Shown: positions 39,207 through 57,178 of the stretch, one piece after another
Position numbering within the stretch: position 1 is the stretch's first letter
Layout of the letters: every line of letters starts with the position of its first letter
Assembly: GCA_963422375.2 (NCBI GenBank)
Contig: OY729427.2
Location: 1,184,001-1,248,000, forward strand
Direction: 5' to 3'
DNA from: Bryobacterales bacterium
GTDB lineage: Bacteria > Acidobacteriota > Terriglobia > Bryobacterales > UBA6623
Length of the DNA: 64,000 bases
Made by a program: the position numbers and the translations under genes
Notes under the pieces: model-generated
The model's input: the letters and a program-made list of their open reading frames with translations, nothing else
Told to the model about the DNA's origin: nothing
Databases searched by the model: none

Positions 39207-39516
39207 GAAGCGTTTGTCGGGTCGCCCATTCGTGACGCACGCAGCAATCAGTCACCGAATCGTCAACGGGCCCGGCCAGAGATCGCGATTCAACAATTCG
39301 GGCAATCCTCGAGGCGTCTCGCAACACCCCGCCCTCCCGCTGGTCTCAGACGAGTCACCTCATGTGCGACGTCCCGAATCAGGCGGCCACGGAAAGGCTG
39401 CGCTTGGCATTCACAACGCCAAGACATTCCAATATGGCTGAACTCCGATTGGGATATCGAGCGGGACGAGACGACGACCCGCTGGCACGACGCCCTTGCT
39501 TTGATTTCATTGTGTA

Positions 39517-40563
39517 CGGCCGACCAAGCCCCGCGCCATGCGCCGCATCTGTTCCGCCGTTGTTCCGCCGTGTCGCAGTCGCGGTCGTTGCGCCGTCCCG
39601 CGAACTCCGTGAGGTAGCGGCCGAGATGACGGACGCTCATCCGGTGATAGGTGCCGTACAGGCCGCGCTTGAACAGGGACCGAAACGATTCGATGCCGTT
39701 CGTATGCGCCGCCCCGCGCACGTACTCGCCGCCGGAGTGCCTGACGGCTTCGTGCGGGAACTCCGCCATGCCGGCGCAGGCCGCCGCCTCGTCGGAGCGA
39801 ACCTGCGCGCCCGGCGCGACCCGGCCGCGCACGAAGCCCTGCAGGTCGCCCTTGGCGGTGCCCGGCAGCGGCCGCGCGGCCACTGCGTTCGTGGCGCGGT
39901 CCCGCGCCCCCGCCACCGGGGTCTTGCCGACGAGCCCGCGCCCGGCGCGGGCCCTCTTGCTCTCGTGCCGGTTGCGTTCCTTGCCGCCGACGTAGGTCTC
40001 GTCCACCTCCACCGGGCCGGCGAACGGGCCCTGATCCCGCTCCCGGCACGCGCGGATGCGGTGCGCCAGGTGCCAGGCCGACTTCCGGCTGACGCCCGGG
40101 TCGCGGTGCAGCTTCATGCTCGAGACGCCCTTGATGCCGGTGGTCAGCAGGAACAGGGCGACGGCCCGGGTGCGGTAGCCGAGCTTGGTGTCGGCCATCA
40201 CGCTGCCGGTGCGCACGGAAAAGCGCTTGCCGCAGCCGCGGCAACGGTACGGCATCGAAGGGTGGGCCGTGCCGGACTGCACGCTGGAGCCGCGGCAGTG
40301 GGGGCATACCGGACCGTCGGGCCAGCGCATGGAGGCGAACCACTTTTCCGCGGATTCGTCATCGCGGAACATGGCGATCACTTCGATCAATGTGATGCCT
40401 TTACGGAACCACTTTCCGGGACCTGATTTCTTCATTTACGGCATCCCCTACTGGAACTATTCTACCAAAAAACACCACAGAATGTAAACGGAAAATCGGA
40501 GGAAATATGAAATCTTATTATGGCTTGATAATTTGCCTACTTGATTCCCTCGGCACTCCGATA
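39517..40563 (-). mobile_element. IS1595 copy A: 3'-truncated, left IR split by the intron and the composite transposon
   Basis: Near-identical to copies B and C down to about 39517. Transposase starts at 40435; an 11-bp duplication near 39550-39570 shifts the frame; no right IR. Confidence 0.9.
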
Positions 40564-42548
40564 GCCGAGTAGGAGGGGTCGTTGCCGAGCCCCTCCCCTC
40601 ACAGACCCGAGCGTGTGCGTCTAACGCACTCGGTTCCTCGGATGGCAGGTTCGCTCAAGCGAATAGCGGAGCGGTCATGGCGGGCCGGACGCGGGCCGCG
40701 GCAGGGGGTGCCGTCGCAGGAGTTCCTGCATCCGGTTCCAGTTCAGGCGCGATTTCCGGCTGCGTCGCGACAGCCACTTCCGCCAAATCCGAACGACTTG
40801 GCAGTGGAAGCTCGACAGCCGCGCGCTGTTGCCCCGGAGCCCGTAGTAGTTCCCGTGCCCCGCAGCACGCTCGCCAAGTGCTCGCACTGCCGCTGCACCG
40901 CGTCGTGCCGGTGCCTGCGGCACCAGTCGTTCACGGTCCGCAGGGCGCGCGCGAGGCGGCTCCGGGCGGTGGACTGGCGCACGACAGGGTAACCCTTCCG
41001 CGACCGCGCCCAGTAATGGGTGAAGCCGAGGAAATCGAACGTCGCGCCCTTCCCGCGCTTCCGGAGTCGGCGCGGTCGGAAGTCCAGGTACCGTGTCTTG
41101 TCCGGGTGGAGCCGCAGCCCGTACCGCTCGAAGCGCTTGGCCAGCACGGCCAGCACGCGCCGGCCGTCCCGGTCGTGCTCGAAGAGCAGCACGGCGGCGT
41201 CGGCGTAGCGCACCAGCAGGCACCGCTCTTGCAGGCGCGGCTTCGCCTCCCGCTCGAACCATGCATCCAGCACGTGGTGCAGGTACAGGTTCGCCAGCAG
41301 GGGGCTGATCACGCCGCCTTGCGGGGTGCCTTGCCCGGTTCGTTGCAGGACGCCCTCCTCGAGCACCCCGGCCTTGAGCCATTTGTCCAGCATCCGCCGG
41401 ACCACTCCGTCCTTGATCCGCAGGTCGAGGAACTCCCGCAAGTGCTTGTGCGGGATCGTGTCGAAGTATTTCGACACGTCCGCGTCGATCACCCATTGCA
41501 GCCCTGCCCGCGCGCCTGCCCGCACTGCGTGCAAGGCGTCATGGGCGGAGCGGCCCGGGCGGAACCCGTGCGAGCAAGGCAGGAAATCCGCCTCGCATAC
41601 CGGTTCCAGCAGCATCGCGATCGCTCTCTGCGCCACCTTGTCCTCGAACGTGGGGATGCCCAGCGGTCGCGTCGTGCCGTCCGCCTTGGGGATGTTGCGC
41701 CGTCGCACCGGCGGCGCTCAGTAGCTCCCGGACTTGATCCGGCCCAGGAGGTCCGACAGGTTGGCCTCCAAGTCCTTTTCGTAGTCCGAGGCCGTCACGC
41801 CGTCGATGCCCGGCGCGCCGTCCTTGCGCGTCAGCCGGTACGCCTCCTGCATCCATGCGAGGTCGATGCAGCGGTGCAGCGTCTTGAACGCCCATGCGGA
41901 GTGCTCCCGCGCCTGTGCGGCTATCCATTGTCTTGCGTGTACGTGTTCGCGGAACTCATGGTTTCCTCCAGCGTTTCCTTCCCATGGTTCTGTCCATCCG
42001 GCGCCCCCCTTCCCTTGGACGGGTCCCGGTTCCCCGCCGTCGCCAGTACTATGCGGGCGCTACGACTCCCTGCGCTGCATCCCCTCGACTTATTGCTTCG
42101 CCAGCCGGTACCACGCCGCGCCTGCTCGTTCGCTCCCGATCCCCCGCAGACAGGGGCGGGCCCGGATCCGTGGGGTTGGCCGCGATCCGTCTTCCGGCCG
42201 TTTTGCATGGACAGTGCAGGGCCTCCCAGGTTCCCCGGCGAGCCTTCCCGTGGCTATGCGGACGTTCTCTGACCCCGGACGACCCGTTGCGCCTCGCCCT
42301 TGGCGGCGCTTCCGGCGCGGCCCCCGCTATAACAAAAACGAAGGCGTCGACATTGAGGATTTCGAGGCTCCATAGCGTCGCTTTGCCACCCGCTGTGTAC
42401 GCTTCACGACGCGCGTTGCCACGCGCCATGCAACACTCGCTCCCGGCTGGCGGGCTGCGCCTCTGCCGGGCAGGTGTCGAACCTGCTGGCTCGCGGTGCA
42501 AGGTTTCAACTCATCGCATCCTCCTTGCCAGGGCTTGGCCTGGCGCAA
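40564..42548 (-). mobile_element. Group II intron (1985 nt)
   Basis: 5' TTGCG. Domain V GAACCGAGTGCGTTAGACGCACACGCTCGGGTC and a domain VI hairpin ending CTACTCGGC. Removing it rejoins the IS IR (AATTATA|TATC). Confidence 0.92.
40675..41959 (-). pseudogene. ltrA: Intron-encoded RT/maturase, inactivated, no endonuclease domain seen
   Basis: APGIDG, IPKADG..RPLGIPT.ED, GFRPGRS, GTPQGGVISPLLAN, YADA in place of YADD, FDFLGF. Frameshifts near 41930 and 40860; TGA near 41719. Confidence 0.9.
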
Positions 42549-42555
42549 TATAATT

Positions 42556-44072
42556 GGGAATTATATATCTGAGTGCCGAGGGAATCAAGTCAGCAAATTA
42601 TCAAGCCATTATAAGATTTCATATTTCTTCCGATTTTCCGTTGACATTCTGTGGTATTTATTGGTAGAATAGTTCCAGTAAGGGATATCGTAAATGAAGA
42701 AATCAGGTCCCGGAAAGTGGTTCCGTAAAGGCATCACATTGATCGAAGTGATCGCCATGTTCCGCGATGACGAATCCGCGGAAAAGTGGTTCGCCTCCAT
42801 GCGCTGGCCCGACGGTCCGGTATGCCCCCACTGCCGCGGCTCCAGCGTGCAGTCCGGCACGGCCCACCCTTCGATGCCGTACCGTTGCCGCGGCTGCGGC
42901 AAGCGCTTTTCCGTGCGCACCGGCAGCGTGATGGCCGACACCAAGCTCGGCTACCGCACCCGGGCCGTCGCCCTGTTCCTGCCGACCACCGGCATCAAGG
43001 GCGTCTCGAGCATGAAGCTGCACCGCGACCCGGGCGTCAGCCGGAAGTCGGCCTGGCACTTGGCGCACCGCATCCGCGCGTGCCGGGAGCGGGATCAGGG
43101 CCTGTTCGCCGGCCCGGTGGAGGTGGACGAGACCTACGTCGGCGGCAAGGAACGCAACCGGCACGAGAGCAAGAGGGCCCGCGCCGGGCGCGGGCTCGTC
43201 GGCAAGACCCCGGTGGCGGGGGCGCGGGACCGCGCCACGAACGCAGTGGCCGCGCGGCCGCTGCCGGGCACCGCCAAGGGCGACCTGCAGGGCTTCGTGC
43301 GCGGCCGGGTCGCGCCGGGCGCGCAGGTTCGCTCCGACGAGGCGGCGGCCTGCGCCGGCATGGCGGAGTTCCCGCACGAAGCCGTCAGGCACTCCGGCGG
43401 CGAGTACGTGCGCGGGGCGGCGCATACGAACGGCATCGAATCGTTTCGGTCCCTGTTCAAGCGCGGCCTGTACGGCACCTATCACCGGATGAGCGTCCGT
43501 CATCTCGGCCGCTACCTCACGGAGTTCGCGGGACGGTGCAACGACCGCGACTGCGACACGGCGGAACGGATGCGGCGCATGGCGCGGGGCTTGGTCGGCC
43601 GGACGCTGACCTGCCGGCAGCTGACCGGCAAGGCCGCGGTCGCGGCCTGAGCGGCGCCCGCCGCGCTGAGCGCGGCAGCCCGCTGCGGGCGCGCGCTTCA
43701 CGCTCGGTACGAGGGGCGCACCGGATCCGGCATGCCCCGGCGCGACCCCAGTCCGGTCCGGACCGTCCATGCAGGCCGTCGAGCGCCGGGGATCCGCTGT
43801 CTTCGGCCCTCGCAGGGCCTGCAAGCGGCTTGCAAGGCGTGCCCTGCCACCGCCAACCGGGTTTCACTGGGGCAACCGGGGCATGCGAGGCGGCCTCTCT
43901 AGTCCCTTCCTCGTCCAATCCGCTGGCAGGCTCGATTCAGATACGATCCCACACCCCACCCCTCTGTGCCCGCCGCGGCCGCACTCGAATGACCCCAGCT
44001 CGACACCCACCTCCCTGCTCACAGCAGTTCTAGTCGGATATGGCGTTGTCGGCACTCAGATATATAATTCCC
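42556..44072 (+). mobile_element. IS1595 copy B (1517 bp)
   Basis: TIR GGGAATTATATATCTGAGTGCCGA at both ends. Confidence 0.95.
42694..43650 (+). CDS. IS1595 transposase
   Basis: Zn ribbon RWPDGPVCPHC..CRGC, VEVDETY, SDE, HTNGIESF. Confidence 0.93.
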   Translation: MKKSGPGKWFRKGITLIEVIAMFRDDESAEKWFASMRWPDGPVCPHCRGSSVQSGTAHPSMPYRCRGCGKRFSVRTGSVMADTKLGYRTRAVALFLPTTGIKGVSSMKLHRDPGVSRKSAWHLAHRIRACRERDQGLFAGPVEVDETYVGGKERNRHESKRARAGRGLVGKTPVAGARDRATNAVAARPLPGTAKGDLQGFVRGRVAPGAQVRSDEAAACAGMAEFPHEAVRHSGGEYVRGAAHTNGIESFRSLFKRGLYGTYHRMSVRHLGRYLTEFAGRCNDRDCDTAERMRRMARGLVGRTLTCRQLTGKAAVAA

Positions 44073-44352
44073 TAAAGAAAACCCGATGCCCGCCGAAACA
44101 TGCTCGGAACCTGGTTTCACGATGTGGCATTCCGATATCGGTGCGATCGTCAAAGCAGATATTGGCAAGGATGAGTGGGCCGAATTCCGCGCAGAGGCCG
44201 ACAAGCGTTATGGTCATGCTGGCGGCCTACGCAAGAATGCACTCCACATCGGCGCCAGCCTAGCCTTCGCCTGGGAAGACGGAAGACAGTCGAACAGCCT
44301 CGCACAGGTTTGTGCCGCCATCCTGAACCCGCACAACTACGTGTCCGAATGA
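44073..44352 (+). pseudogene. 3' fragment of an unidentified gene cut by the IS
   Basis: Open frame from the IS edge with protein-like sequence (YGHAGGLRKNALHIG..AWE); family not established. Confidence 0.35.
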
Positions 44353-44443
44353 GGCGGCAGAAGCTCAACCAGTCGATATCCTGGCGGCGAGGAGGGTCTG
44401 CCCGACAAGGACTTCAGGGGGACTGGCCAGGCAGAATTACGGG

Positions 44444-46585
44444 TCACATCCAGGCCAGCTTGTTCCGGTCGAGGCGTCTTGTCTGCCTCCGTTTTTCGCC
44501 AGCTCGTTGGGCGACGGCTTGGCCAGCGAGCCAATGTCCCGTGTCGATCCGTGTCCCGTCCAGTTCCACCGGGGCCATCTGCTGGCTCTGCCCGGTCCGG
44601 CAGCCTGGACCGGTCTGCCGTCGCGGCGGGGTCGAGCGGATCGTCCGGGGCACGATGCGGTTGTCCACAACATGCGACCAGTCGAGCTCCCTGCCGCCTC
44701 CGCCGTCGTCCGCCTCATCCGGCAGCGGCGGCGGCTCGGCGCTGTATCCCATGGCGCGGGCGATGACGGTCGCCGCCTGTGAGGCGGCGTCGCGCAGTGC
44801 GCCGTCGTCGGATGGGCGTAGATGGCGGTGGTCTCGCGCTGGCGGTGCCCGAGCAGCCGCCCGACGGTGGTGAGCCCGACGCCGTTCATGACACCCTGCG
44901 AGGCCCACGTGTGCCGGCAGTCGTGGATGCGAAGGCCCGGGCAGTCCGGCTTCTTCGCGGACGCCCACCCAGAACGTGTAAAGGCGATCCGACGTCAGGT
45001 CCTCAGGGAACACTCGCGCCGCGCCTTCGGTCCGTGGCAAGGCCGCGAGCAGCCGCGCTGCTTCCGGCCCGAGCCAGATCGTGCGCGGCCCGGTCTTGGT
45101 GTCTTCGAGCCGCGCGCTCGCGCCGTCCTCGCCCAGCTCGCCGATTTCGTCCCACTTGAGGTCGATGACTTCGGAGAGCCGCGCCCCAGTGAGGGTCAGC
45201 AGGCGGATGGCGGCAACCGGCCAAGGGTGCTCCTCACGGTGTCGGTCCAAGACCGTTCCGAGACGCTCCAGCTCCGCGTGATCGAGATATCGGGCGACGG
45301 GCCTGCGCGGGTTCCTGACGATGTTGGCGCAGGCGTCGGGGACGCCCTCGTCCAGCTCTCCCCACTGGCGGGCGGAGGCGAGCATGGCGCGCAGGATCTC
45401 GAAGGCGCGGTTGGCCGCGCCGGGCTTGTCCGTGCTCGCCGCGTCGAACCATGCCGAGACCCGCACATGGTCGATGGCGTCGTTGACGATGCCGGAGATG
45501 CGTCCCGCCGCCTCGCGGACGTGCTCGTCGGCGAGATGGGCGTAGCGCTCGGTGGAGGCGACATCGGCATGGCCGAGCAGGCGGCCTACGGTGTAGAGGT
45601 CGAGGCCGCTCATCACGGCGTGGGAGGCGAACGTGTGTCGGCAGTCGTGGATGCGCACCTCGTCAAGCCCGGCGAGTTTGCGCAGCTTCTGCCAGCGCAG
45701 GCCGAGGTCCTTCATCGGGCCGTCGCCCGTCCTGTTCGGGAAGAGGAACCGCCCCTCGCGCGGCAGGCCGTTCAGGACGGCCCGTGCGGGCGGCGGAAGC
45801 TGGATCGCCTTCGGCCCGGTCTTCGAGTCAGGCAGGACGGCGCGGGCGCCGCGTATCCAGTCCCATCTGAGGCCCGTGATCTCGGAGGATCGCGCGCCGG
45901 TGAACAGCAGCAGCCGGATCGCGGCGGCGGCCTGCCGGTCCTCGGCGTGATCCAGTACGAAGCCGAGGCGCTTCAGCTCGTCCAGCGAGAGGAAGCGCTC
46001 GCGCGGGGTCGTTTTGTAGCGGCGCATGTTGCGGCAGGGGTTCGAGCCCTGGGGACGAAGGTCCCACAGCTCGGCCTGCCGCATCATGACGGAGAGCACC
46101 GGCAGGGTCCGGTTGGCGTTGCCGGGCGTGCCGCTCATGGAGTCGAACCAGCGCCGCACATCGGCGCGGTCGACCTCCGGGACGCGCATATTGCCAAAGA
46201 AGGGGATGAGATGGCGGTCGATCAGATGGCGGTTGCCTTCCCGCGTGGACGGTTTCCACCGGCGCCCTTGGCGGCGCATGAACTCCGGCACGAAGTCGGC
46301 GAACAGCGGGTCGGCCTGGCGCTCGGCGTTCGCGGCCGCAATGGTCGCGAGGGCTTTGTCTCTCGCCTCGGCGGCGGTCATTTCGTCCGCGGTGCCGAGG
46401 ACGATGTTCTTCGCACCGAACTGGTGCACGACACGGACGAAGAAGGTCTTCGCGCCGCCCGGGAAAACCCGGAAGCCGAACTTCGGCAGGTCGATGTCAT
46501 AGACGGCGAGGCCGCGCGCACCGGGTTTGTGTTCCCTGAAGGTGCGCCGCAGCGCACGCTCGTTGATGGTCGTGTGGATGGGCAT
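44444..46585 (-). CDS. Tyrosine recombinase fused in frame to a second, partial and frameshifted integrase
   Basis: First copy: arm-binding-type N-terminus, GARSSE, DSKTG, HDCRH, LLGH, TERY. Second copy: GARLSE, DTKTG, then after a shift near 44940 HDCRH, LLGH, AIY. Confidence 0.82.
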   Translation of the reverse strand: MPIHTTINERALRRTFREHKPGARGLAVYDIDLPKFGFRVFPGGAKTFFVRVVHQFGAKNIVLGTADEMTAAEARDKALATIAAANAERQADPLFADFVPEFMRRQGRRWKPSTREGNRHLIDRHLIPFFGNMRVPEVDRADVRRWFDSMSGTPGNANRTLPVLSVMMRQAELWDLRPQGSNPCRNMRRYKTTPRERFLSLDELKRLGFVLDHAEDRQAAAAIRLLLFTGARSSEITGLRWDWIRGARAVLPDSKTGPKAIQLPPPARAVLNGLPREGRFLFPNRTGDGPMKDLGLRWQKLRKLAGLDEVRIHDCRHTFASHAVMSGLDLYTVGRLLGHADVASTERYAHLADEHVREAAGRISGIVNDAIDHVRVSAWFDAASTDKPGAANRAFEILRAMLASARQWGELDEGVPDACANIVRNPRRPVARYLDHAELERLGTVLDRHREEHPWPVAAIRLLTLTGARLSEVIDLKWDEIGELGEDGASARLEDTKTGPRTIWLGPEAARLLAALPRTEGAARVFPEDLTSDRLYTFWVGVREEAGLPGPSHPRLPAHVGLAGCHERRRAHHRRAAARAPPARDHRHLRPSDDGALRDAASQAATVIARAMGYSAEPPPLPDEADDGGGGRELDWSHVVDNRIVPRTIRSTPPRRQTGPGCRTGQSQQMAPVELDGTRIDTGHWLAGQAVAQRAGEKRRQTRRLDRNKLAWM

Positions 46586-47074
46586 GGCCGCGTCTCCGTT
46601 GTCTGTTCCCTCGGGCGCCGCCCGCTCCAAGGGAACGGAACGGCGGATTTGGGGAGACGACGCGGCCCGCGCGGGGGATCTAGGCCAGAGGCTGAATCCG
46701 GCCTATCCCCCTATCATGTAATGGAAAACGTCCGGTGAAGGCGGACCGGTCGGGTCTCGCTCCATGCACCGTCGGTGCGTGTGGTGTGAGAACCACGCGC
46801 CGAAGGGCGTCCAGATCGCGCTTCCTGACCGCTCAATCCGTCGGGTGATACTTGCGGAGACAGTCCCCGAACCGCCGCGTGGCTTCCAGGCGGCACTATA
46901 GGAAGCACGAGGTAACAGATCAATGCATGAAGGCGTGCGCACCGGCGGCATCATTTACTCGGCCCGCACTGTCGGCGGCGGTGCCGGCTCGCACGTGACC
47001 GCCGCTGAGCAGTGGCCGCCGCACACGTTCCCGCTGCGCAGGATCGAGCCGTGCACACGTTGCCGCTCCGCAGC

Positions 47075-47222
47075 GTTGCCGCCCGCCGCGCCGGGCTTTC
47101 GGCTGCATCCCCTGAAGGGCAACCGTGCGGGCCAGTGGAGCGTCCGCGTCTCGGGCAACTGGCGCGTGGTGTTCCGCTTCTAGGACGGCGAGGCCGTGGA
47201 CGTGGACCTGATCGACTACCAC
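47075..47222 (+). pseudogene. higB: HigB (RelE-type) toxin, C-terminal remnant
   Basis: PGFRLHPLKGNRAGQWSVRVSGNWRVVFRF*DGEAVDVDLIDYH; N-terminus missing, TAG at 47181. Confidence 0.85.
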
Positions 47223-47243
47223 GGACCGGAGGGAGTGCTGACC

Positions 47244-47558
47244 ATGAACGACATTGCGAACGATCGCGTCGGCCCGATGCAGAACCCGCCGCACTTGGGC
47301 GAACTCATCCGCGAGAGCATGGACGATGTGGGCTGGGACGTGACCGAGACGGCGGCGCGGCTCGGTTGCGAGCGCGGAACGCTGTCGCGGCTGCTGAACG
47401 GCAAGGCGGGAGTGTCCGCGAACATGGCGCTGTCTTTGGAGGACATCGGCTGGGGCACCGCCGAGCACTGGATGCGGATGCAGGCGAGCTACGAGCTTGC
47501 GCAGGCGCGTCGCGAGAGGGTCGCCGCCGAACGGCGTGCGGGCGCGCTGCACGCATGA
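47244..47558 (+). CDS. higA: HigA antitoxin (XRE HTH)
   Basis: MQNPPHLGELIRE, LSRLLNG, WMRMQASYEL. Confidence 0.9.
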   Translation: MNDIANDRVGPMQNPPHLGELIRESMDDVGWDVTETAARLGCERGTLSRLLNGKAGVSANMALSLEDIGWGTAEHWMRMQASYELAQARRERVAAERRAGALHA

Positions 47559-47673
47559 TCGTTTATCGCGCCATCGTGGACGGACGAGCAACTGATCCGG
47601 CGGCTTCCCTTCATCCATTTCCAACCAATTGCACATCGTCCGGTGCTCGGCGCAGAGCGGGCGGCGCGGTCTG

Positions 47674-50490
47674 ATGCGCTTGTCATGGAACGAGGTGCGC
47701 GTCCGCGCCGCCGCCTTCGCGGAGGATTGGAAAGACGCGGCCTACGAGAAGGGCGAGACGCAGAGTTTCTACAACGCCTTCTTCGACGTGTTCGGGGTGC
47801 GGCGTCGGAACGTCGCGCGATACGAGGCTCACGTCGCGAAGCTCGACAACCGCTCGGGCTTCATCGACCTGTTCTGGCCGGGCGTGCTGCTCGTCGAACA
47901 GAAGAGCGCCGGGCGCGATCTCCGCAAAGCGTACGAACAGGCCGGGGAGTATTTCGACGCGCTGCCGGAACGCGAGCGCCCGCGCTTCATCCTGGTGAGC
48001 GACTTCCAGACCTTCGAGCTTCACGATCTTGACGAGGGCGAGACAGTCGTCTTCCCGCTTGCAGACCTGCCGGCGCATGCCGAGTCGTTCGGCTTCATTC
48101 TCGGGGTGCAGCGCCGGACGTTCTGCGACCAGGACCCAGCTAACATCGAAGCGGCCGAGTTGGTCGGGCGTCTGCACGATGCGCTCGCCGATGCCGGACA
48201 CCGGGGTCACGATCTGGAACGTTTCCTCGTGCGGATGGTGTTCTGCATGTTCGCCGACGACACCGGGGTATTCGAGCCGCGCGATATCTTCCTCGACTTC
48301 GTCGAAACGCGCACCAGGGAGGACGGGGCGGATCTCGGGCCGTGGCTCGCGCAACTGTTCGAGGTGCTCGATACGCCGGAGGACGAACGCGCCGCGACGC
48401 TCGACGAGAACCTGGCACGGTTCCCCTACGTCAACGGCGACCTGTTCGAGGGGCATCTGCGGACGTTTTCGTTCGACGCGGCGATGCGCAGGGCGTTGCT
48501 CGATGCTTGCCGCTTCGACTGGTCGAGTATCTCGCCCGCGATTTTCGGCGCGCTCTTCCAGTCGGTGATGGACCCGGCGGAACGCCGGGCGCAGGGGGCG
48601 CACTACACGACCGAGAAGAATATCCTCAAGGTGATCGAGCCGCTGTTCATGGACGACCTGCGCACCGAGTTCGAGCGGGTGCGCAAGCGCCGTGGCCGGC
48701 TCGCGGCGCTCCGCCAGTTCCAGGCGAAGCTCGGCGGCCTGACGTTCTTCGACCCGGCCTGCGGCTGCGGCAACTTCCTCATCATCGCCTACCGGGAATT
48801 GCGGCTGCTGGAAATTGAGGTCATCGGCGAGATACGGAACGAGACCGCTGCGACGGGTCAGACGGTACTCGATGCGGCGTGGCAGTCAGTGGTGGACGTA
48901 GACCAGTTCTACGGGATCGAGCTTGGCGAGTTCCCGGCCCGCATCGCGGAGACCGCGCTGTGGATGATGGACCACATCATGAACAACCGGTTGAGCCTGG
49001 AGTTCGGCCAGACCTTCGTTCGCATTCCGCTGGAGAAGTCGCCTCACATCGTCCATGGCGATTCGCTGGAAATGAACTGGTCCGGTCTGCTGCCATCGGG
49101 CGATTGCTCCTTCGTGCTGGGCAATCCGCCATTCGTGGGCGCGAAGTACCAGACGGCGGAGCAGCGCGCGCAGGTGCGCGGCATTGCGGCGCTCGGTAGG
49201 AGCGGCGGCACGCTCGATTACGTCGCCGCGTGGTTCATCAAGGCGGGAGAATATCTGAAGGGCAGCCGCGCTCGGATCGGCTTTGTCGCGACCAACTCCA
49301 TCACGCAGGGCGAGCAGGTCGCGCAGATATGGCCGGCGCTGTTCGGGCGCTGCAAGCTGGGGATCGCCTTCGCGCATCGGACCTTCGCATGGGGTTCGGA
49401 CGCGCGCGGGAAGGCGCATGTGCATGTCGTCATTCTCGGCCTCGACCGGCGCAAGGCCGCGCGAGCCGAGAAGCGGTTGTTCAGCTATCCCGATATCAAC
49501 GGCGACCCGGAAGAGAGCAGCCATGGCGCGCTGTCGCCGTACCTGTTCGATGCAGGCGGGCTGTCCGACCCGCATCTGGTGGTGCGGGAGGAAAACGCGC
49601 CGATCAACGGCATGGGCCGATTGATTATCGGCTCCAAGCCCATCGACGGAGGCAACTTCATCTTCGACACGGCGGGACGCGATGCGTTTCTGGAAGCCGA
49701 ACCGGAGGCCGCGCCGTGGCTCCGACCGTTCATCGGGGCACGGGAATACCTGCAGGGAGGCGAGCGCTGGATTCTGGCGTTGCACGATGCACCGCCTGAA
49801 GTTCTTGCGCGGCTACCGGGAGTGCGGGAGCGAATCGCCGCCGTCCGCGCCTACCGCGATGCCAGCAAGAGCGCGCCGACGCGGAAGCTCGCGGCGACGC
49901 CGACGCTCTACCACGTCAACGTTATCCCGACCACACCATTTCTGGTGATTCCGAAGGTCAGTTCGGAGCGGCGCGAATACGTGCCGGTGGGTTGGCTGGA
50001 GCCGCCGACCGTCCCCAGCGATCTGGTGTTCGTCCTTCAGGACGCTTCGCTGGTCGATTTCGCCCTCCTGACCTCGGCCATGCACATGGCGTGGCTGCGC
50101 CACGTCGGCGGGCGGCTGAAGAGCGACTACCGCTATTCCATCGGCCTCGTCTACAACACCTTCCCGACACCGCCCGAAGGCGCGGACCTGTCGAAGCTGG
50201 CACCGCTCGCCCAAGCCGTGCTCGACGCCCGCGCTGCACACCCCAACGCGACGCTCGCCGAGCTCTACGCCCCCGACCTCATGCCGCCCACCCTGCGCCG
50301 CGCCCACCAAGCCCTCGACCGCGCCGTGGACCGCCTCTATCGGCGCGTTGGATTCGCTTCCGAGCGCGAGCGAGTGGAGCATCTGTTCGGTCTGTATGAG
50401 AAGATGATGTCTCCGCTGGAAGCGGGGACGAGAACACGTTCGAGACGCCGGACAAAGATCAAGCGAATGGAGCAAGGGACAACCTCATGA
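47674..50490 (+). CDS. MmeI/YeeA-like type IIL/IIG restriction-modification enzyme (nuclease, m6A MTase, TRD)
   Basis: FIDLFWPGVLLVEQK, GAHYT, FFDPACGCGNF, GNPPF, TNSITQGEQ, RLKSDYRYS..VYNTFP. Confidence 0.92.
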   Translation: MRLSWNEVRVRAAAFAEDWKDAAYEKGETQSFYNAFFDVFGVRRRNVARYEAHVAKLDNRSGFIDLFWPGVLLVEQKSAGRDLRKAYEQAGEYFDALPERERPRFILVSDFQTFELHDLDEGETVVFPLADLPAHAESFGFILGVQRRTFCDQDPANIEAAELVGRLHDALADAGHRGHDLERFLVRMVFCMFADDTGVFEPRDIFLDFVETRTREDGADLGPWLAQLFEVLDTPEDERAATLDENLARFPYVNGDLFEGHLRTFSFDAAMRRALLDACRFDWSSISPAIFGALFQSVMDPAERRAQGAHYTTEKNILKVIEPLFMDDLRTEFERVRKRRGRLAALRQFQAKLGGLTFFDPACGCGNFLIIAYRELRLLEIEVIGEIRNETAATGQTVLDAAWQSVVDVDQFYGIELGEFPARIAETALWMMDHIMNNRLSLEFGQTFVRIPLEKSPHIVHGDSLEMNWSGLLPSGDCSFVLGNPPFVGAKYQTAEQRAQVRGIAALGRSGGTLDYVAAWFIKAGEYLKGSRARIGFVATNSITQGEQVAQIWPALFGRCKLGIAFAHRTFAWGSDARGKAHVHVVILGLDRRKAARAEKRLFSYPDINGDPEESSHGALSPYLFDAGGLSDPHLVVREENAPINGMGRLIIGSKPIDGGNFIFDTAGRDAFLEAEPEAAPWLRPFIGAREYLQGGERWILALHDAPPEVLARLPGVRERIAAVRAYRDASKSAPTRKLAATPTLYHVNVIPTTPFLVIPKVSSERREYVPVGWLEPPTVPSDLVFVLQDASLVDFALLTSAMHMAWLRHVGGRLKSDYRYSIGLVYNTFPTPPEGADLSKLAPLAQAVLDARAAHPNATLAELYAPDLMPPTLRRAHQALDRAVDRLYRRVGFASERERVEHLFGLYEKMMSPLEAGTRTRSRRRTKIKRMEQGTTS

Positions 50491-50596
50491 CGGGACATGA
50501 TGCTTTTCAAGCGGTTGCCGCCTATACCAATCGACAATCTGAAGATACATTGATCACCCGCATCCGAATCGGCTCATCCATCGAAGGAAGGAACCA

Positions 50597-50965
50597 ATGA
50601 TCGACGTACTTTCCAGACCTGTCAGTGAAATCACCATCGGCAACATCCGAGCGCTGATCGAATCCAAGATTCCCGAAATCGAGCAGGTTGAATGCAAGGA
50701 AACACTACCCGCTAAGCAGGGTGAAGATCCGTGGATGTCCGGCAAGAATAGGATCGAATGCTACGCAAAATACAAGATCCTTAAAGAGGTCGTTGCCTTT
50801 GCCAATGCTTACGGAGGGGTCCTGCTGTTGGATATCCAAGAATCCAGCACAAAGCTATCGGCAGCTGCAGGAATCAACTCGATCCCGAAATGCGTCGATT
50901 TAGCGGATCGTCTGAAGCTGGTGTTTCGCGATCGTGTGGAGCCTCCTCTTCCTGGGGTGTGTTGA
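50597..50965 (+). pseudogene. Schlafen/AlbA_2 domain protein, truncated by an IS
   Basis: E..QVECK, KEVVAFANAYGGVLLL; the ORF ends inside the IS5-like end. Confidence 0.8.
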
Positions 50966-51265
50966 CACAAGTGCCCCCGTGTGTGGTATGTTTTGCCCTT
51001 GTCGTCCCGGGCGGGAAAAGGGAGGAGAATCAAGCCGGTGGAACTTACGGAAGACCCATGCGGACACATCGCACCGATCCTCCCGAAGCAGCGTGGAAAC
51101 GTCAGTCTGTCGCATCTGCAAGTGCGCAACAAGATCCTCTACGTGGCGGAAAACGACTGCAAGTGGCGCGACCTGGCGCCGCGGTGCGGCAACTGGCACA
51201 CGGTCTACACACGGATGCATCGCTGGTCGAAGAGGGGCGTGCTCGAGCAACTGCAAAGAGACCGT
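50954..51265 (+). mobile_element. IS5-family remnant (DUF4096-type N-terminus)
   Basis: IAPILPKQRG..ILYV..CKWRDL..GNWHTVYTRMHRWSKRGV; putative IR GGGGTGTGTTGACAC. Confidence 0.8.
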
Positions 51266-51359
51266 CATCGTCGATGCGCTGCAGTTCAACGAAGCGTTCA
51301 GAGCCCTGCGTATCGATGCGGTTCGTCGAGATGTACGACGTCGGAAACGCAACATTCCT

Positions 51360-51842
51360 GTGGTGGACCTGCCGTGAAGATGCGGAAGAGGCGATCGACA
51401 CGAGTGTCGTCAGCCCGGCCGTCAGCCGAGCGATGAGCCATTTCCAAAACCGACTTCATGCCATGACGGAGAGGGCGGCTGAGGCGAGGAGCACACGTGA
51501 GGACATCACCGATGCACCCACCCCTTTCTCGGGTTTGTTGTGTAACGAATTCCGTGCTTTCGCCGCACGGTTAAACGCGAATGGCGTTTTCGTTGGCAAG
51601 CTGCGTGACCGTCAAATCGACCCAGATACCATGATGCCCGACTTTCGAAGACGGGTGGCAGACGAGCTGAAGGTGCCGCTTGATGTCGTGGTGGCGCACT
51701 TCGCTGCGCGTCCGGCAGCCCCAACCGAGCAGTTTTCAAAGCAGAAGGCAAGCCATCCACCGGTGCACAGCAAAGCTTCGAGGAGGCAGTACGAACCTCC
51801 GATCTGAACGAGGCTCAGCGGCAGTTCTTGTTGGAGTTCTGA
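51360..51842 (+). pseudogene. Hypothetical protein upstream of the peptidase-helicase; N-truncated and frameshifted
   Basis: AMSHFQNRL..KLRDRQID, then after a shift KAEGKP..QSFEEAVRTSDLNEAQRQFLL; ends 4 bp before the next ATG. Confidence 0.55.
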
Positions 51843-51846
51843 TCTC

Positions 51847-54800
51847 ATGGATCCCTTCGAGCCGATCCGTTCCAAGGCAGTGGCGCTTCATGAGGAGTTG
51901 CACTCCGAGGGCAAAGGCCCGTTGGATCCGCTCGCTCTTGTCGAAGCTGCCGCAAGACACTGCGATCTGGACCTTGTATGGCTGTCGCAGGGTGACCCGG
52001 CACTGCAGGGCGCGCGAGCTTTATACGACGACCAAGGCGGAACGATCTGCTGCGAGGAGGGAGGAGGTACGGCAACCCGTGCGCTACTCGTCGCGCACGA
52101 ACTTGGACATTCCGAACTTCACGCTGGCCCCGCGATTTGCGCCAGTTCCGACATTAATCCCTCGCGGAGCACCGAGACCGCGCCATTTGGCCTGCAGCGT
52201 GTCGAGGACTATGCTGCGCGCGCATGGCGTGAACTTCAAGCCAATGTCTATGTGCGCGAACTACTGTTCCCGCGCGCCTTTGCTCGAGAACTTCACCTCG
52301 AGAACAGCCTGACCGCTGCAGAGATCGCCGACCGAACGAAACTTCCGGGGGCGCTAGTTCGGCAACAGTTGTTCGATACGTTGCTCCTGCCGACCATGGT
52401 AGTCGAAGATGAGGCCACACCCGAGATGCCGCACGTACGCAGGCCCGATCCGTCCCAAGAGCGCACGGCAATCCACCGCGGCAGGCCCTTTCTGTTGCAA
52501 GCAGGGCCGGGAACCGGCAAGACACGAACCTTGGTGAGGCGCGTGCTCTCACTGCTGGCTGAAGGCACCGATCCGGCCGCGATCCTTATTCTTACATTCT
52601 CCAATCGTGCTGCCGGCGAACTGTCGGAGCGACTGACTGCGGCTGTCCCGGACGCTGCGCCCAAACTCTGGATCGGAACGTTCCATGCCTTCGGTTTCGA
52701 TCTCGTGCGGCACTACCACGACAAGCTCGAACTCGCGCCTGATCCCTCACTGTTTGACCGCAGCGACGCAATCGAAGTCCTCGAAGACATCTTTCCCACG
52801 CTGCGTTGGTTCATTACCGCAACCTCTGGGATCCGGTGATGGTGCTCATGGACATCGTTAATGCAATCTCTCGCGCAAAGGATGAAATGGTCGGGCCGGA
52901 GCGCTACCGAGTGCTGGTGAAAGCGATGGAGGCGGAAGCGGTCGGTCGCGATGAGGAGGCGCGGATTGCGGCTGCAAAGTGTCTTGAAATCGCGGATATC
53001 TACGACCTTTATGAAGAGGCACTACGCAAACATGGTGGTGTGGACTTTGGCGACCTGATCATGCGCCCCACCCAGTTACTGGAAGACGATAAAGCCGTTC
53101 GCATTGGCGTGCAGCTCCGCCATCGGCACGTACTCGTCGATGAATATCAGGACGTAAATCGGGCCAGAGCACGTCTTCTGAAGACGGTGGCAGGAAATAG
53201 CAAGCGGCTTTGGGTCGTCGGCGATGCGCGACAGTCGATCTATCGATTTCGTGGCTCTTCCTCCGAAAATATGGCTCGGTTCGGCTCCGATTACCCTGAT
53301 TCTGTAACGGATCATCTGGGCGTCAACTATCGCTCGACCGAGCAGATCGTGCATAGCTTTGTCGCGGTGGCACCGCATATTGGCGCGTCGAACGACATGC
53401 TGACCCTCGAGTTGGAGGCTAATCGGAGGAAAGGACCAAGCCGTCCCGAGATCCGCCGTTTCGAGACGCTGAATGAGGAAGCCGAGGGCGTGGCGGCGAG
53501 TATCCGTCAACTTGAAGAAGCGGGGGTGAGGCTCCGCGACCAGGCGATCCTGTGTCGGACCAACCGGCGGCTGAACGAGATTGCCTCGGCACTGGAGATG
53601 CGCGGCATCCCCGTCCTTCACCTTGGCAGCTTGTTTGAGCGGGAAGAGGTTCGTGACCTGCTAGCCGTGCTTAGCTTAGCCGTCGACCCATTCGGCGACG
53701 CATTGGTTAGGGTCGGCGCGATGCCGCGATACGGTCTGATGCTGCAGCATGTGCACAATGTAAGCCGCTTTCTGCGGTCCCTTCAAGAACCCGCATTGGC
53801 GGGACTTGCGAAGGCGGGGCAAGCACCCGGCCTGTCGACATCGGGGCGGAAAGGCATCAAGCGCCTTGCCGCCGATCTGAACGGCCTGTGCTCAAGCACC
53901 AACGCCTGGAAGTTTCTCGCCATCTTTCTCTTCGATCATACGGACGTGGCCAAGGAGTTGGGCTGTGCGACATCCGTAATGGAGTGCATGCGTGCTGCGG
54001 CAGTCTGGCAATTCCTCAATCTTGTGCGCGAGCAGAGTCCGGTGGGGATGGGACTTCCGATACAGCGCACCCTCGATCGAGTGCGGCAGCTGGTGCTGTT
54101 GCCAGAGGAGCGCGACCTGCGACAAGTTCCAGCCGCAGCATTGCATCTCGACGCCGTTCGGTTGATGACCGTCCACGGCAGCAAGGGACTTGAATTCGAG
54201 GCTGTGCACCTCCCTGGACTGACGGTCGCGAGTTTCCCAAGTTCCAACCGCGGCGAGCGTTGTCCGCCGCCTAGGGACATGATCGATGGATCTGGCAATG
54301 CCTCGCCAAGGGAGGTAGCGAAGCGCGCACATATTGACGAGGAGGAATGCCTGTTTTTCGTGGCGCTGTCGTGCGCCCGGACACACCTCCGTCTCTACCA
54401 TGCGCGAAAGCATTCCAATGGAAGCAATCGCTCCCCGTCGTCATTTCTGAACTGGCTCTCCGGCCGGTATGTCCACGAGATGATCAACCCTCTCAAGCTC
54501 TCGCTTCCCACAAACACCCTGCGGATGCAGCCGGTCGAAGTCAGTTGGCCCACGGATTGGGCGGTGACGGACAGCCGTCTGGGCTCTTACGAGAAATGTC
54601 CACGACGCTTCTTCTATACGCATGCTCTGGGACTGGGCGGCGCTCGGAAGTCTACAGCGTTCTCACGTACGCATGATTGCCTTTACGACTTCCTGCGCTG
54701 GCTTGCCGATGCCCGGCGCATGGGCGAACCTGACTTGGACGAGGCGGAAACCGCCTTCGACGCCATCTGGCAAACTCGCGGGCCGGCAGAGCATGCCCTC

Positions 54801-55280
54801 GCCGCCGATTACCGCAGGCTCGCGTTCCGGCTGATCGCGGCTTTGCTCAAGGCGGGGGCTGGGCAAAGTTTCCACGACGCGCAACCCCTTGCCATCGACT
54901 TTCCCAACGGACGCGTACTTGTGGAGCCCAATGAATTGGCGGAAATGTCCGATGGCACCGTCATCATCCGCCTGGTTCGTACGGGCTACAAGCGGAGCGA
55001 CGAATACGACAGGCTGGAATACACCCTTTATCACCTTGCGGCCCAGAGTCAGTTTGGCGGCAACGCCATTGTGCAGGCGTTGCACTTGACCGACGAAACG
55101 CATGAGCCCGTTGTGATCAGCGGGACCAAGCTCGGCAACCGATGGAAGAAGAGCGATACCATGTTGAGCGGTATCGCCTCCGGCGAGTTTCCGCCGAAGG
55201 TAGACGCTGTGACCTGTCCACGGTGCCCTTACTTCTTCATTTGCCCCTCCGTGCCTAACGGCACCTTGTGGCTCGACTGA
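51847..55280 (+). pseudogene. ImmA/IrrE metallopeptidase + UvrD/SF1A helicase + Fe-S PD-(D/E)XK-like domain; one frameshift near 52800
   Basis: VAHELGH (HExxH), AGPGTGKT, LTFSNRAA, VDEYQD, VGDARQSIYRFRG, NYRS, TVHGSKGLEF, CPRRFFY..CPRCPYFFIC. Confidence 0.88.
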
Positions 55281-55374
55281 TTTCGTACGGAGTAGCCTTT
55301 CCGGGTTCCTGCTCTGCTGGCGATCAAGCCCGGGATTCACGATGGCTGTAGATACGTGACTGCCCGTAAATTTA

Positions 55375-56891
55375 GGGAATTATATATCTGAGTGCCGACA
55401 ACGCCATATCCGACTAGAACTGCTGTGAGCAGGGAGGTGGGTGTCGAGCTGGGGTCATGCGAGTGCGGCCGCGGCGGGCACAGAGGGGTGGGGGGTGGGA
55501 TCGTATCTGAATCGAGCCTGCCAGCGGATTGGACGAGGAAGGGACTGGAGAGGCCGCCTCGCATGCCCCGGTTGCCCCGGTGGAACCGGGTTGGCGGTGG
55601 CAGGGCACCCCTTGCAAGCCGCTTGCAGGCCCTGCGAGGGCCGAAGACAGCGGATCCCCGGCGCTCGACGGCCTGCATGGACGGTCCGGACCGGACCGGG
55701 GTCGCGCCAGGGCATTGCGGATCCGGTGCGCCCCTCGTACCGAGCGTGAAGAGCGCGTCCGCAGCGGGCTGCCGCGCTCAGCGCGGCGGGCGCCGCTCAG
55801 GCCGCGACCGCGGCCTTGCCGGTCAACTGCCGGCAGGTCAGCGTCCGGCCGACCAAGCCCCGCGCCATGCGCCGTATCTGTTCCGCCGTGTCGCAGTCGC
55901 GGTCGTTGTACCGTCCCGCGAACTCCGTGAGGTAGCGGCCGAGATGACGGACGCTCATCCGGTGATAGGTTCCGTACAGGCCGCGCTTGAACAGGGACCG
56001 GAACGATTCGATGCCGTTCGTATGCGCCGCCCCGCGCACGTACTCGCCGCCGGAGTGCCTGACGGCTTCGTGCGCGAACTCCGCCATGCCGGCGTAGGCC
56101 GCCGCCTCGTCGGAGCGGACCTGCGCGCCCGGCGCGACCCGGCCGCGCACGAAGCCCTGCAGGTCGCCCTTGGCGGTGCCCGGCAGCGGCCGCGCGGCCG
56201 CTGCGTTCGTGGCGCGGTCCCGCGCCCCCGCCACGGGCGTCTTGCCGACGGGCCCGCGCCCGGCGCGGGCCTTCTTCCTCTCGTGCTTGTTGCGTTCCTT
56301 GCCGCCGACGTAGGTCTCGTCCACCTCCACCGGGCCGGCGAACGGGCCCTGATCCCGCTCCCGGCACGCGCGGATGCGGTGCGCCAGGTGCCAGGCCGAC
56401 TTCCGGCTGATGCCTAGGTCGCGGTGCAGCTTCATGCTCGAGACGCCCTTGATGCCGGTGGTCAGCAGGAACAGGGCGACGGCCCGGGTGCGGTAGCCGA
56501 GCTTGGTGTCGGCCATCACGCTGCCGGCGCGCACCGAAAAGCGCTTGCCGCAGCCGCGGCAACGGTACGGCATCGAAGGGTGGGCCGCGTCGGACTGCAC
56601 GCTGGAGCCGCGGCAGCGGGGGCACGCGGGACCGTCCGGCCAGCGCATGGAGGCGAACCACTTTTCCGCGGATTCGTCATCGGGGAACATGGCGATCACT
56701 TCGATCAATGTGATGCCTTTACGGAACCACTTTCCGGGACCTGATTTCTTCATTTACGACATCCCCTACTGGAACTATTCTACCAAGAAAAACCACAGAA
56801 TATCAACGGAAATTCGGAAGAAATATGAAATCTTATAATGGCTTGATAATTTGCCGACTTGATTCCCTCGGCACTCAGATATATAATTCCC
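55375..56891 (-). mobile_element. IS1595 copy C (1517 bp)
   Basis: Same TIRs as copy B, inverted. Confidence 0.95.
55797..56753 (-). CDS. IS1595 transposase
   Basis: Near-identical to 42694-43650. Confidence 0.93.
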   Translation of the reverse strand: MKKSGPGKWFRKGITLIEVIAMFPDDESAEKWFASMRWPDGPACPRCRGSSVQSDAAHPSMPYRCRGCGKRFSVRAGSVMADTKLGYRTRAVALFLLTTGIKGVSSMKLHRDLGISRKSAWHLAHRIRACRERDQGPFAGPVEVDETYVGGKERNKHERKKARAGRGPVGKTPVAGARDRATNAAAARPLPGTAKGDLQGFVRGRVAPGAQVRSDEAAAYAGMAEFAHEAVRHSGGEYVRGAAHTNGIESFRSLFKRGLYGTYHRMSVRHLGRYLTEFAGRYNDRDCDTAEQIRRMARGLVGRTLTCRQLTGKAAVAA

Positions 56892-57178
56892 ATATAATTC
56901 CCAATGAATACAGGGGGCTTCTGGTACGGCAGGTGTGACGGGGGCTGTGACACCCCCTGTGACACGGGACTCAGGGGCAGTCACAGGCTGTCACGGCATT
57001 CACGGCTCGATTTCCGGCTCCCGTGTCGTTCAGATGCCCGATGATCGGTTCTGTGATCCGGGTTGTCCAGCCGTTGCCAGGCGTCCCTACACCCTCTCGT
57101 CCGCGTGACCCCGTTCTGCCCGCCGTCTCTCCAGCAGCGGCCGTCCGGTAGCGCTTGGGATGCCGGCTGAACGGTTGC

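Follow-up and report, generated by a model that had tools for sequence, protein, structure and literature searches.

Position of the intron in an IS1595 inverted repeat

The window analysed here, a stretch of 64,000 nucleotides from a Bryobacterales genome, contains a group II intron lodged in the terminal inverted repeat (IR) of an insertion sequence (IS). The intron occupies positions 40564 to 42548 on the minus strand (1,985 nt, running from TTGCG to CTCGGC) and is decayed; a sequence search of the whole genome found this single copy. It splits the left IR of an IS1595 element after the 10th base. The 5' exon end AATTATA (42549 to 42555, minus strand) corresponds to IR bases 4 to 10, comprising IBS1 and the spacer, and the 3' exon starts from IR base 11 in IS copy A (39514 to 40563, minus strand), which retains bases 11 to 1049 of the full 1,517-bp copy and is missing its right part. 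As had been proposed in an earlier, sequence-only reading of this DNA, joining AATTATA (42555 to 42549) to the 3' exon TATCGGAGTGCCGAGGGAATC restored the left IR from base 4, with one substitution relative to the consensus of 122 left ends. Additionally, AATTATA and the first T of the intron together form one copy of an 8-bp duplication, AATTATAT. An intron at base 10 separates the IR tip from the rest of the repeat, and an IS end interrupted in this way would be expected to stop transposing.

The DDE transposase with its zinc ribbon (NF033547, PF12762 and PF12760) placed the target IS in the IS1595 family. The IR was 24 bp long, and 43 of the 89 paired elements were flanked by a perfect 8-bp duplication. 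This genome contained about 125 copies with 248 recognisable ends, which made up 3.0% of its sequence; the copies varied widely in identity and many lacked matching duplications, which suggests that the burst was long and rearrangement extensive. The tip of the target IS, GGGAATTAT, fits ggnnatTAT, which we take to be the tip motif of the ISNwi1 subgroup. At least two further IS families in this genome had the tip GGGAATTATA, and 201 of the 219 GGGRATTATA sites were ends of the target IS. A target present at both ends of every IS copy had been thought to be self-multiplying for the intron; no multiplication was found in this genome, where 1 of 248 (about 250) IS ends was occupied and the intron is dead.

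Intron ends and RNA domains

The Rfam model RF02005 (group-II-D1D4-6) matched the intron with 128 bits, and the domain V/VI model RF00029 scored 28.8 bits, under its cut-off of 40. Domain V (40604 to 40636, minus strand) had an AAC triad and a 5-nt loop, UUAGA, both of which were the same in the sister introns, and domain VI (40566 to 40600, minus strand) had a bulged A at 40570, 7 nt from the 3' end. A degenerate domain V or J2/3 was considered as a defect of the window copy and rejected, since the sisters had the same AAC triad and likewise ended in GGC.

Upon alignment of homologues from 100 loci in relatives and other phyla, we found a common start column and a common end column with flanks that diverged on both sides; the similarity ran from TTGCG, TAGCG or GTGCG to CGGC, CGGA, CGAC or CGGT. 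The site tally contained 138 rows, and removal of six head-to-tail rows left 132 distinct non-tandem sites. The 5' starts at these sites were TTGCG (104), GTGCG (14) and TAGCG (14), the 5' search pattern itself having selected such starts, and the last two bases over 79 ends were GC (56), AC (11), GA (10) and GT (2). The ends of the window intron had been called atypical, with a possible 1-nt shift. Neither description holds: TTGCG...CGGC is normal for this intron family, and the homologues begin and stop at identical columns without any shift. A search with a 3'-end sequence pattern gave matches in none of five genomes, and the GC skew of this contig was too flat to orient the intron copy relative to replication.

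Reverse transcriptase and intron class

The intron carries a reverse transcriptase (RT)/maturase pseudogene without an endonuclease domain (40675 to 41959, minus strand). Four lesions were present: a frameshift near 41932, a TGA codon at 41720 to 41718, YADA in place of YADD at 41207 to 41196, and a second frameshift near 40860; with these, the window copy has no intact ORF with a YADD motif. Nine bases upstream of the ORF, present in four sisters, were also absent from the window copy. The largest RT fragment scored 287.5 bits against TIGR04416, just below the cut-off of 300. The ORFs of sister introns stopped directly after domain X, so that they comprised RT and maturase without an endonuclease domain.

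The nearest relatives of the intron were found in Bryobacterales. Its RT was 68% identical to that of a R. etli plasmid intron (NC_021909), which is labelled E in Miura 2022, and two further close RT matches likewise carry the class E label. The available part of PMC3753933 describes a 5-nt domain V loop as a feature of classes E and F; the window intron had such a loop (UUAGA) as well as the EBS1-IBS1 and EBS2-IBS2 pairing of class E. We compared the RT with reference introns of classes g1, g2, g3 and D from Toro 2013, for which two GenBank entries were taken as RefSeq equivalents. These references were 36 to 40% identical to it and fell outside its clade in a quick tree that contained no named class E row, and the four classes were ruled out by this identity and tree. 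In particular, the class D reference was 38% identical and outside the clade, so the intron does not belong to the RmInt2 lineage. No group II intron protein was present among the annotated features of one 50-kb piece of pRmeGR4b. From these comparisons, the window intron is classed as a dead, endonuclease-minus copy of class E. The sole other match to the intron protein in this genome was a distant RT-like fragment with 30% identity (G000:C2:2846481-2847080).

Target recognition by EBS1 and EBS2

EBS1 was located by aligning domain I of each intron with that intron's own exon, and corresponded to the six nucleotides that precede the 3' arm of the d3 stem. Over the 132 sites, this 6-mer paired with the exon at 0.93, with at least 5 of 6 pairs in 122 sites, while seven shifted registers paired at 0.31 to 0.46. 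Among the 53 distinct EBS1 sequences, the pairing was 0.87, compared with a shuffle mean of 0.42 and maximum of 0.51. EBS2 was formed by the bases after GAAA, which paired with exon positions -8 to -11 with a peak at -8 (0.76, versus a shuffle maximum of 0.58). In the window copy, EBS1 is UGUUAU (42329 to 42334, minus strand) and pairs at 5 of 6 positions with the exon end AUUAUA, the exception being one U-U mismatch, and EBS2 is UCCU (42356 to 42359, minus strand), which faces an exon segment that in the IR consists of the terminal GGG and one flanking base (-8 to -11). The sequence-only reading had placed EBS1 at UAUAG, 42327 to 42331; that motif is present there, but as EBS1 it lies 3 nt off, and the corresponding +3 register paired at 0.35 rather than 0.93, with at least 5 of 6 pairs in 2 of 132 sites.

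The code of the lineage, EBS2 UCCU with EBS1 UAUAAU or UGUAAU, spells the IR tip GGGRRTTAYA. As evident from sequence comparison, EBS1 pairs with IR bases 5 to 10 and EBS2 with the terminal GGG; an EBS loop that maps elsewhere and does not pair with the IR had been named beforehand as a refutation of homing into the repeat, and both loops of the lineage matched the tip. Two sister introns, L131 and L133, showed a compensatory EBS1/target pair (UAUAAG/CUUAUA). The predicted pairing demonstrably places the specialisation of the lineage in its EBS sequences. The duplex energies computed for the EBS1 loop were weak. For EBS3 or delta, no covariation with the first 3' exon base was found in the tested columns; this base was A, C, G or T on an identical loop sequence and is probably recognised loosely.

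Sister introns and their insertion sites

We searched 30 genomes of the genus, together with 170 from elsewhere in the order, using a pattern for the EBS signature of the lineage. The census revealed 25 introns, all of them within 6 of the 30 congeneric genomes, and the 170 others contained none; the window copy is missed by the pattern because its EBS1 has changed. Apart from L008 and L133, which were without a 3' exon and remained unplaced, 23 sisters could be placed: 13 at IS1595-type ends, 2 at IR-like sites that are unproven as IS ends (L147 and L166), and 8 elsewhere, some of them inside open frames (L138, L139, L144, L145, L146, L161, L162 and L167). At all 13 IS-end sites, in left and right IRs alike, the insertion followed base 10, and in L134 both IRs of one IS contained the intron. 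Eleven sisters were backed by a perfect 8-bp duplication, in which the partner end was followed by the same 8-mer (L131, L132, L134 at both ends, L136, L140, L142, L143, L148, L164 and L328), and the IS ends of L141 and L217 were judged by IR identity and transposase. A related copy outside the census, L163, was also not at an IS end.

When divided by EBS1, sisters with UAUAAK were at IS ends in 8 of 11 cases and those with UGUAAU in 5 of 12, the latter group also including both IR-like sites. The occupied elements included IS1595 species that differ in the interior of their IRs, a derivative with TnpB and a 66-bp miniature, and the transposases of the other occupied IS species were 44 to 55% identical to that of the window IS. 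In G002, four more 5' ends with GGGGATTATA were present at contig ends, and in G021, 6 ends were occupied in a genome with 106 IS1595 transposase matches. A metagenome scan of 79 loci at 56 to 69% protein identity added no site with the EBS signature of the lineage.

The earlier proposal that the intron homes into IS ends was thus borne out in part. Of the 23 placed sisters, 13 were at IS ends, always after base 10 and with both ends taken in L134, and 2 were at IR-like sites. However, 8 of the 23 placed sisters were not at IS ends, and the behaviour is therefore a strong preference rather than exclusive homing. All sisters came from one genus and therefore do not represent independent origins.

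Two kinds of derivative were observed among these loci. L143 (a 1,324-bp element) and L140 lie in non-autonomous elements with IS1595-type IRs and an 8-bp duplication, in which TnpB (NF040570, 218 bits) replaces the transposase; this TnpB is either a passenger or a nested IS200/IS605 element. L136, L217, L188 and L010 are ORF-less intron derivatives of 747 to 764 nt, some at IS1595 ends, and are presumably mobilised in trans.

Base pairing and preference for IS ends

Taken at the level of the lineage, these comparisons make it probable that the main homing site of this endonuclease-minus class E lineage is the outermost 10 bp of IS1595-type IRs (GGGRRTTAYA), and look-alike chromosomal sites appear to be used as well. 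Retrohoming through EBS1 and EBS2 would be tuned to a tip that is common to many IS1595 elements and their non-autonomous derivatives. By analogy with work on group II introns, RmInt1 and RmInt2, the intron ribonucleoprotein would reverse-splice into exposed DNA at the replication fork and, with the target at both ends of the IS, one copy of it would lie on the favoured strand.

The same sites could arise without any special tie to the IS, if the lineage reads a relaxed motif (GGRN-RTTRYA) whose commonest tolerated matches in genomes of 67% G+C are IS1595 tips, with insertions in genes being purged. The two accounts differ mainly in the origin of the match and not in the chemistry. Among fully paired sites in this genome, IS ends accounted for 55% with UAUAAU and 26% with UGUAAU, and much of the preference therefore follows from base pairing alone; these shares are close to the 8 of 11 and 5 of 12 found in the sisters. 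The relaxed motif would also agree with the eight ordinary chromosomal matches, some within open frames, and with the variable first 3' exon base. In contrast, it leaves aside that each EBS loop is an exact match to the IS tip, that EBS1 tracks an IR variant by compensatory change, that both ends of one IS are occupied and that IS ends are over-represented in the IS-poor genome G001. In G001, 5 of 11 insertions were at IS ends and 5 were not, in a genome where at most 38 transposase-bearing IS1595 ends (from 19 transposase matches) were present among 296 motif sites, with non-autonomous ends not included in the 38. The insertions at IS ends in G001 were in excess; selection against gene insertions could produce such an excess, and the copies are related. 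Overall, we consider the relaxed motif unlikely as the full account and prefer homing tuned to the IS1595 tip.

A stronger reading is that the class E lineage is a family-wide parasite of one IS1595 subgroup, which reads nothing but the tip that transposition obliges many IS species to conserve, tracks IR variants through compensatory EBS changes and is drawn to IS ends beyond base pairing. The extra attraction could come, for instance, from a protein that recognises the subterminal IR or from transposase opening the ends. We regard this reading as conceivable and rather improbable.

Probable order of insertions at the locus

The first three bases of the IR, GGG, were found away from the intron at 56902 to 56900, and together with the other copy of AATTATAT they form a detached left-IR tip of copy A (56892 to 56902, minus strand) that contains IBS2. 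This tip lies immediately outside the left end of IS copy C (55375 to 56891, minus strand; transposase 55797 to 56753), and IS copy B (42556 to 44072, plus strand; transposase 42694 to 43650) abuts the 5' exon end AATTATA. Copies B and C bound a 14.3-kb unit (42556 to 56891), with their left ends outward, and the two outward-facing copies and the 8-bp duplication AATTATAT constitute the signature of a composite transposon. Its cargo comprised an integrase remnant, a HigBA-like pair, an MmeI-like methylase and a split UvrD/PD-(D/E)XK helicase-nuclease, and as a whole it was single-copy in the genome. GGG now lies 14.3 kb from the intron because the composite transposon, as we reconstruct it, later inserted at the junction. 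An inversion between IS copies or a replicative inversion was rejected as a source of the detached GGG, as neither gives the same 8-mer outside both left ends.

Since the intron begins with T, the duplication AATTATAT reads alike in either order of insertion, and the composite could have come first, with the intron entering the duplicated AATTATAT by EBS1 alone. At this locus, that order is very unlikely: positions -8 to -10 are at present CCC, which cannot pair with the UCC of EBS2, whereas exon positions -10 and -9 were GG in 23 of 23 sisters. In the window copy, these two positions are now CC and the GG stands at the opposite end of the composite, and therefore the intron most likely arrived before the composite. 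In the preferred order, the intron would have entered an intact IR of copy A, a composite bounded by two further copies of that IS would then have jumped in across the exon-intron junction, so that AATTATAT was duplicated and GGG displaced, and the intron and IS copy A would have decayed afterwards.

In a repeat-rich genome of which IS copies make up 3%, mis-joins are possible, and we considered whether the arrangement or the RT lesions were assembly artefacts. In one study, a 2,053-nt contig spanned the intron with its two junctions and showed 0 differences; in a second study, two contigs that contained them had 1 difference altogether. One of the two studies may be the source of the assembly. 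The RT lesions were repeated in the contigs of both studies and absent from a related intron of a third study. With the 8-bp duplication also coherent across 14.3 kb, an artefact is scarcely credible. No contig joint that skipped the intron was seen in the searched contigs, and an empty allele may still exist. The truncated IS copy has a tRNA gene (Rfam RF00005; 38850 to 38933, plus strand) roughly 600 bp away, and the cluster of mobile elements may be an island at this tRNA.

Other introns and nested elements in related genomes

We also observed repeated targets in neighbouring lineages. G021 contained a sister class E lineage (L130, L135, L137 and L173-L189) with EBS1 GCAAUU or GCGAUU and EBS2 UCAU, which was found repeatedly at TTGAGAATTGC^TG. 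This site resembles an end of a different IS family, with a weak IS4-like transposase match. Repeated identical 5' exons were likewise present in a G001 lineage (ATGTAACGAAGTCTGA^) and a G009 lineage (TTCCGGAAATTCT^).

Class E introns stood head to tail in arrays of as many as five, with a period of 2,010 bp, at G001:C2:1597784-1605853 and elsewhere (L025, L031, L174 and L187); the next copy begins exactly at the previous 3' end, though that end is unpaired with EBS1. In the twintrons of G021 (L130-L137 and L328), another intron was nested at base 41 to 42 of domain I, and among those of G001 (L138-L148), 10 of 11 copies had an intron nested within their RT gene; such twintrons appear to have spread as units. 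In G003, an element of roughly 3.5 kb was inserted at the same spot in three class E introns that lack an ORF (L161, L162 and L217), separating domain V from domain VI. Read by eye, it contained putative tyrosine-recombinase genes, and we take it to be RIT-like.

Comparison with known systems

The IRs at either end of ISRm17 serve RmInt2 of Sinorhizobium meliloti GR4 as homing sites, and the argument that this doubles the targets was made for that intron, as given in the available parts of PMC4615759 and PMC5894124. The strategy of homing to IS ends is therefore already published for RmInt2, and the new detail is the combination of class E with a 10-bp tip common to several IS1595 species. As in RmInt2, copies in the present lineage lie at one fixed base in left and right IRs (13 of 13 IS-end sites, and both ends of L134). 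In contrast to RmInt2, which those parts describe as a class D intron with all copies in one IS species, the present lineage is of class E and occupies several IS1595 species as well as non-IS sites, and the confinement of all copies to IS IRs is not shared, as 8 of 23 lie elsewhere. The mobility of RmInt2 has been demonstrated in the same sources; that of the present lineage is predicted from sequence comparison. RmInt1 in ISRm2011-2 is similar in that a multicopy IS is the target, whose spread is reportedly blocked, and it differs in having one target per IS copy, high site specificity and class D membership (PMC4615759 and PMC5894124, available parts).

The present intron resembles class E (IIE) introns, as characterised in the available parts of PMC3753933 and PMC8919778, in its RT-X protein without an endonuclease, its 5-nt domain V loop and its use of EBS1 and EBS2. 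The R. etli class E intron ends in CTACTCGGC, as the window intron does; unlike intact class E introns, the window copy has a broken protein. UHB.I2 is, according to the accessible text of PMC7923331, a comparable group IIB intron with a 5'-UUGCG start, a non-AY end, no endonuclease and no clear EBS3, and it differs in lying in an integron array and in being assigned to CL1 by its authors. In the literature covered, mostly outside subscription papers on class E, we found no class E lineage homing to IS1595 ends.

The window copy is dead and has not spread, and by itself it carries modest weight; its locus records three mobile-element events in an order that can be dated. With the EBS1/EBS2 code mapped and sister copies available, it can be tested directly whether introns of this kind halt the movement of an IS. 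If the parasite reading were true, such introns would naturally slow IS bursts in genomes rich in IS copies, and other IS families would be restrained likewise by neighbouring class E lineages of the genus. To the published case of an intron that inserts into transposon ends, the lineage contributes a second class of intron and, instead of one IS, a whole IS subgroup; this suggests that the strategy arises repeatedly.
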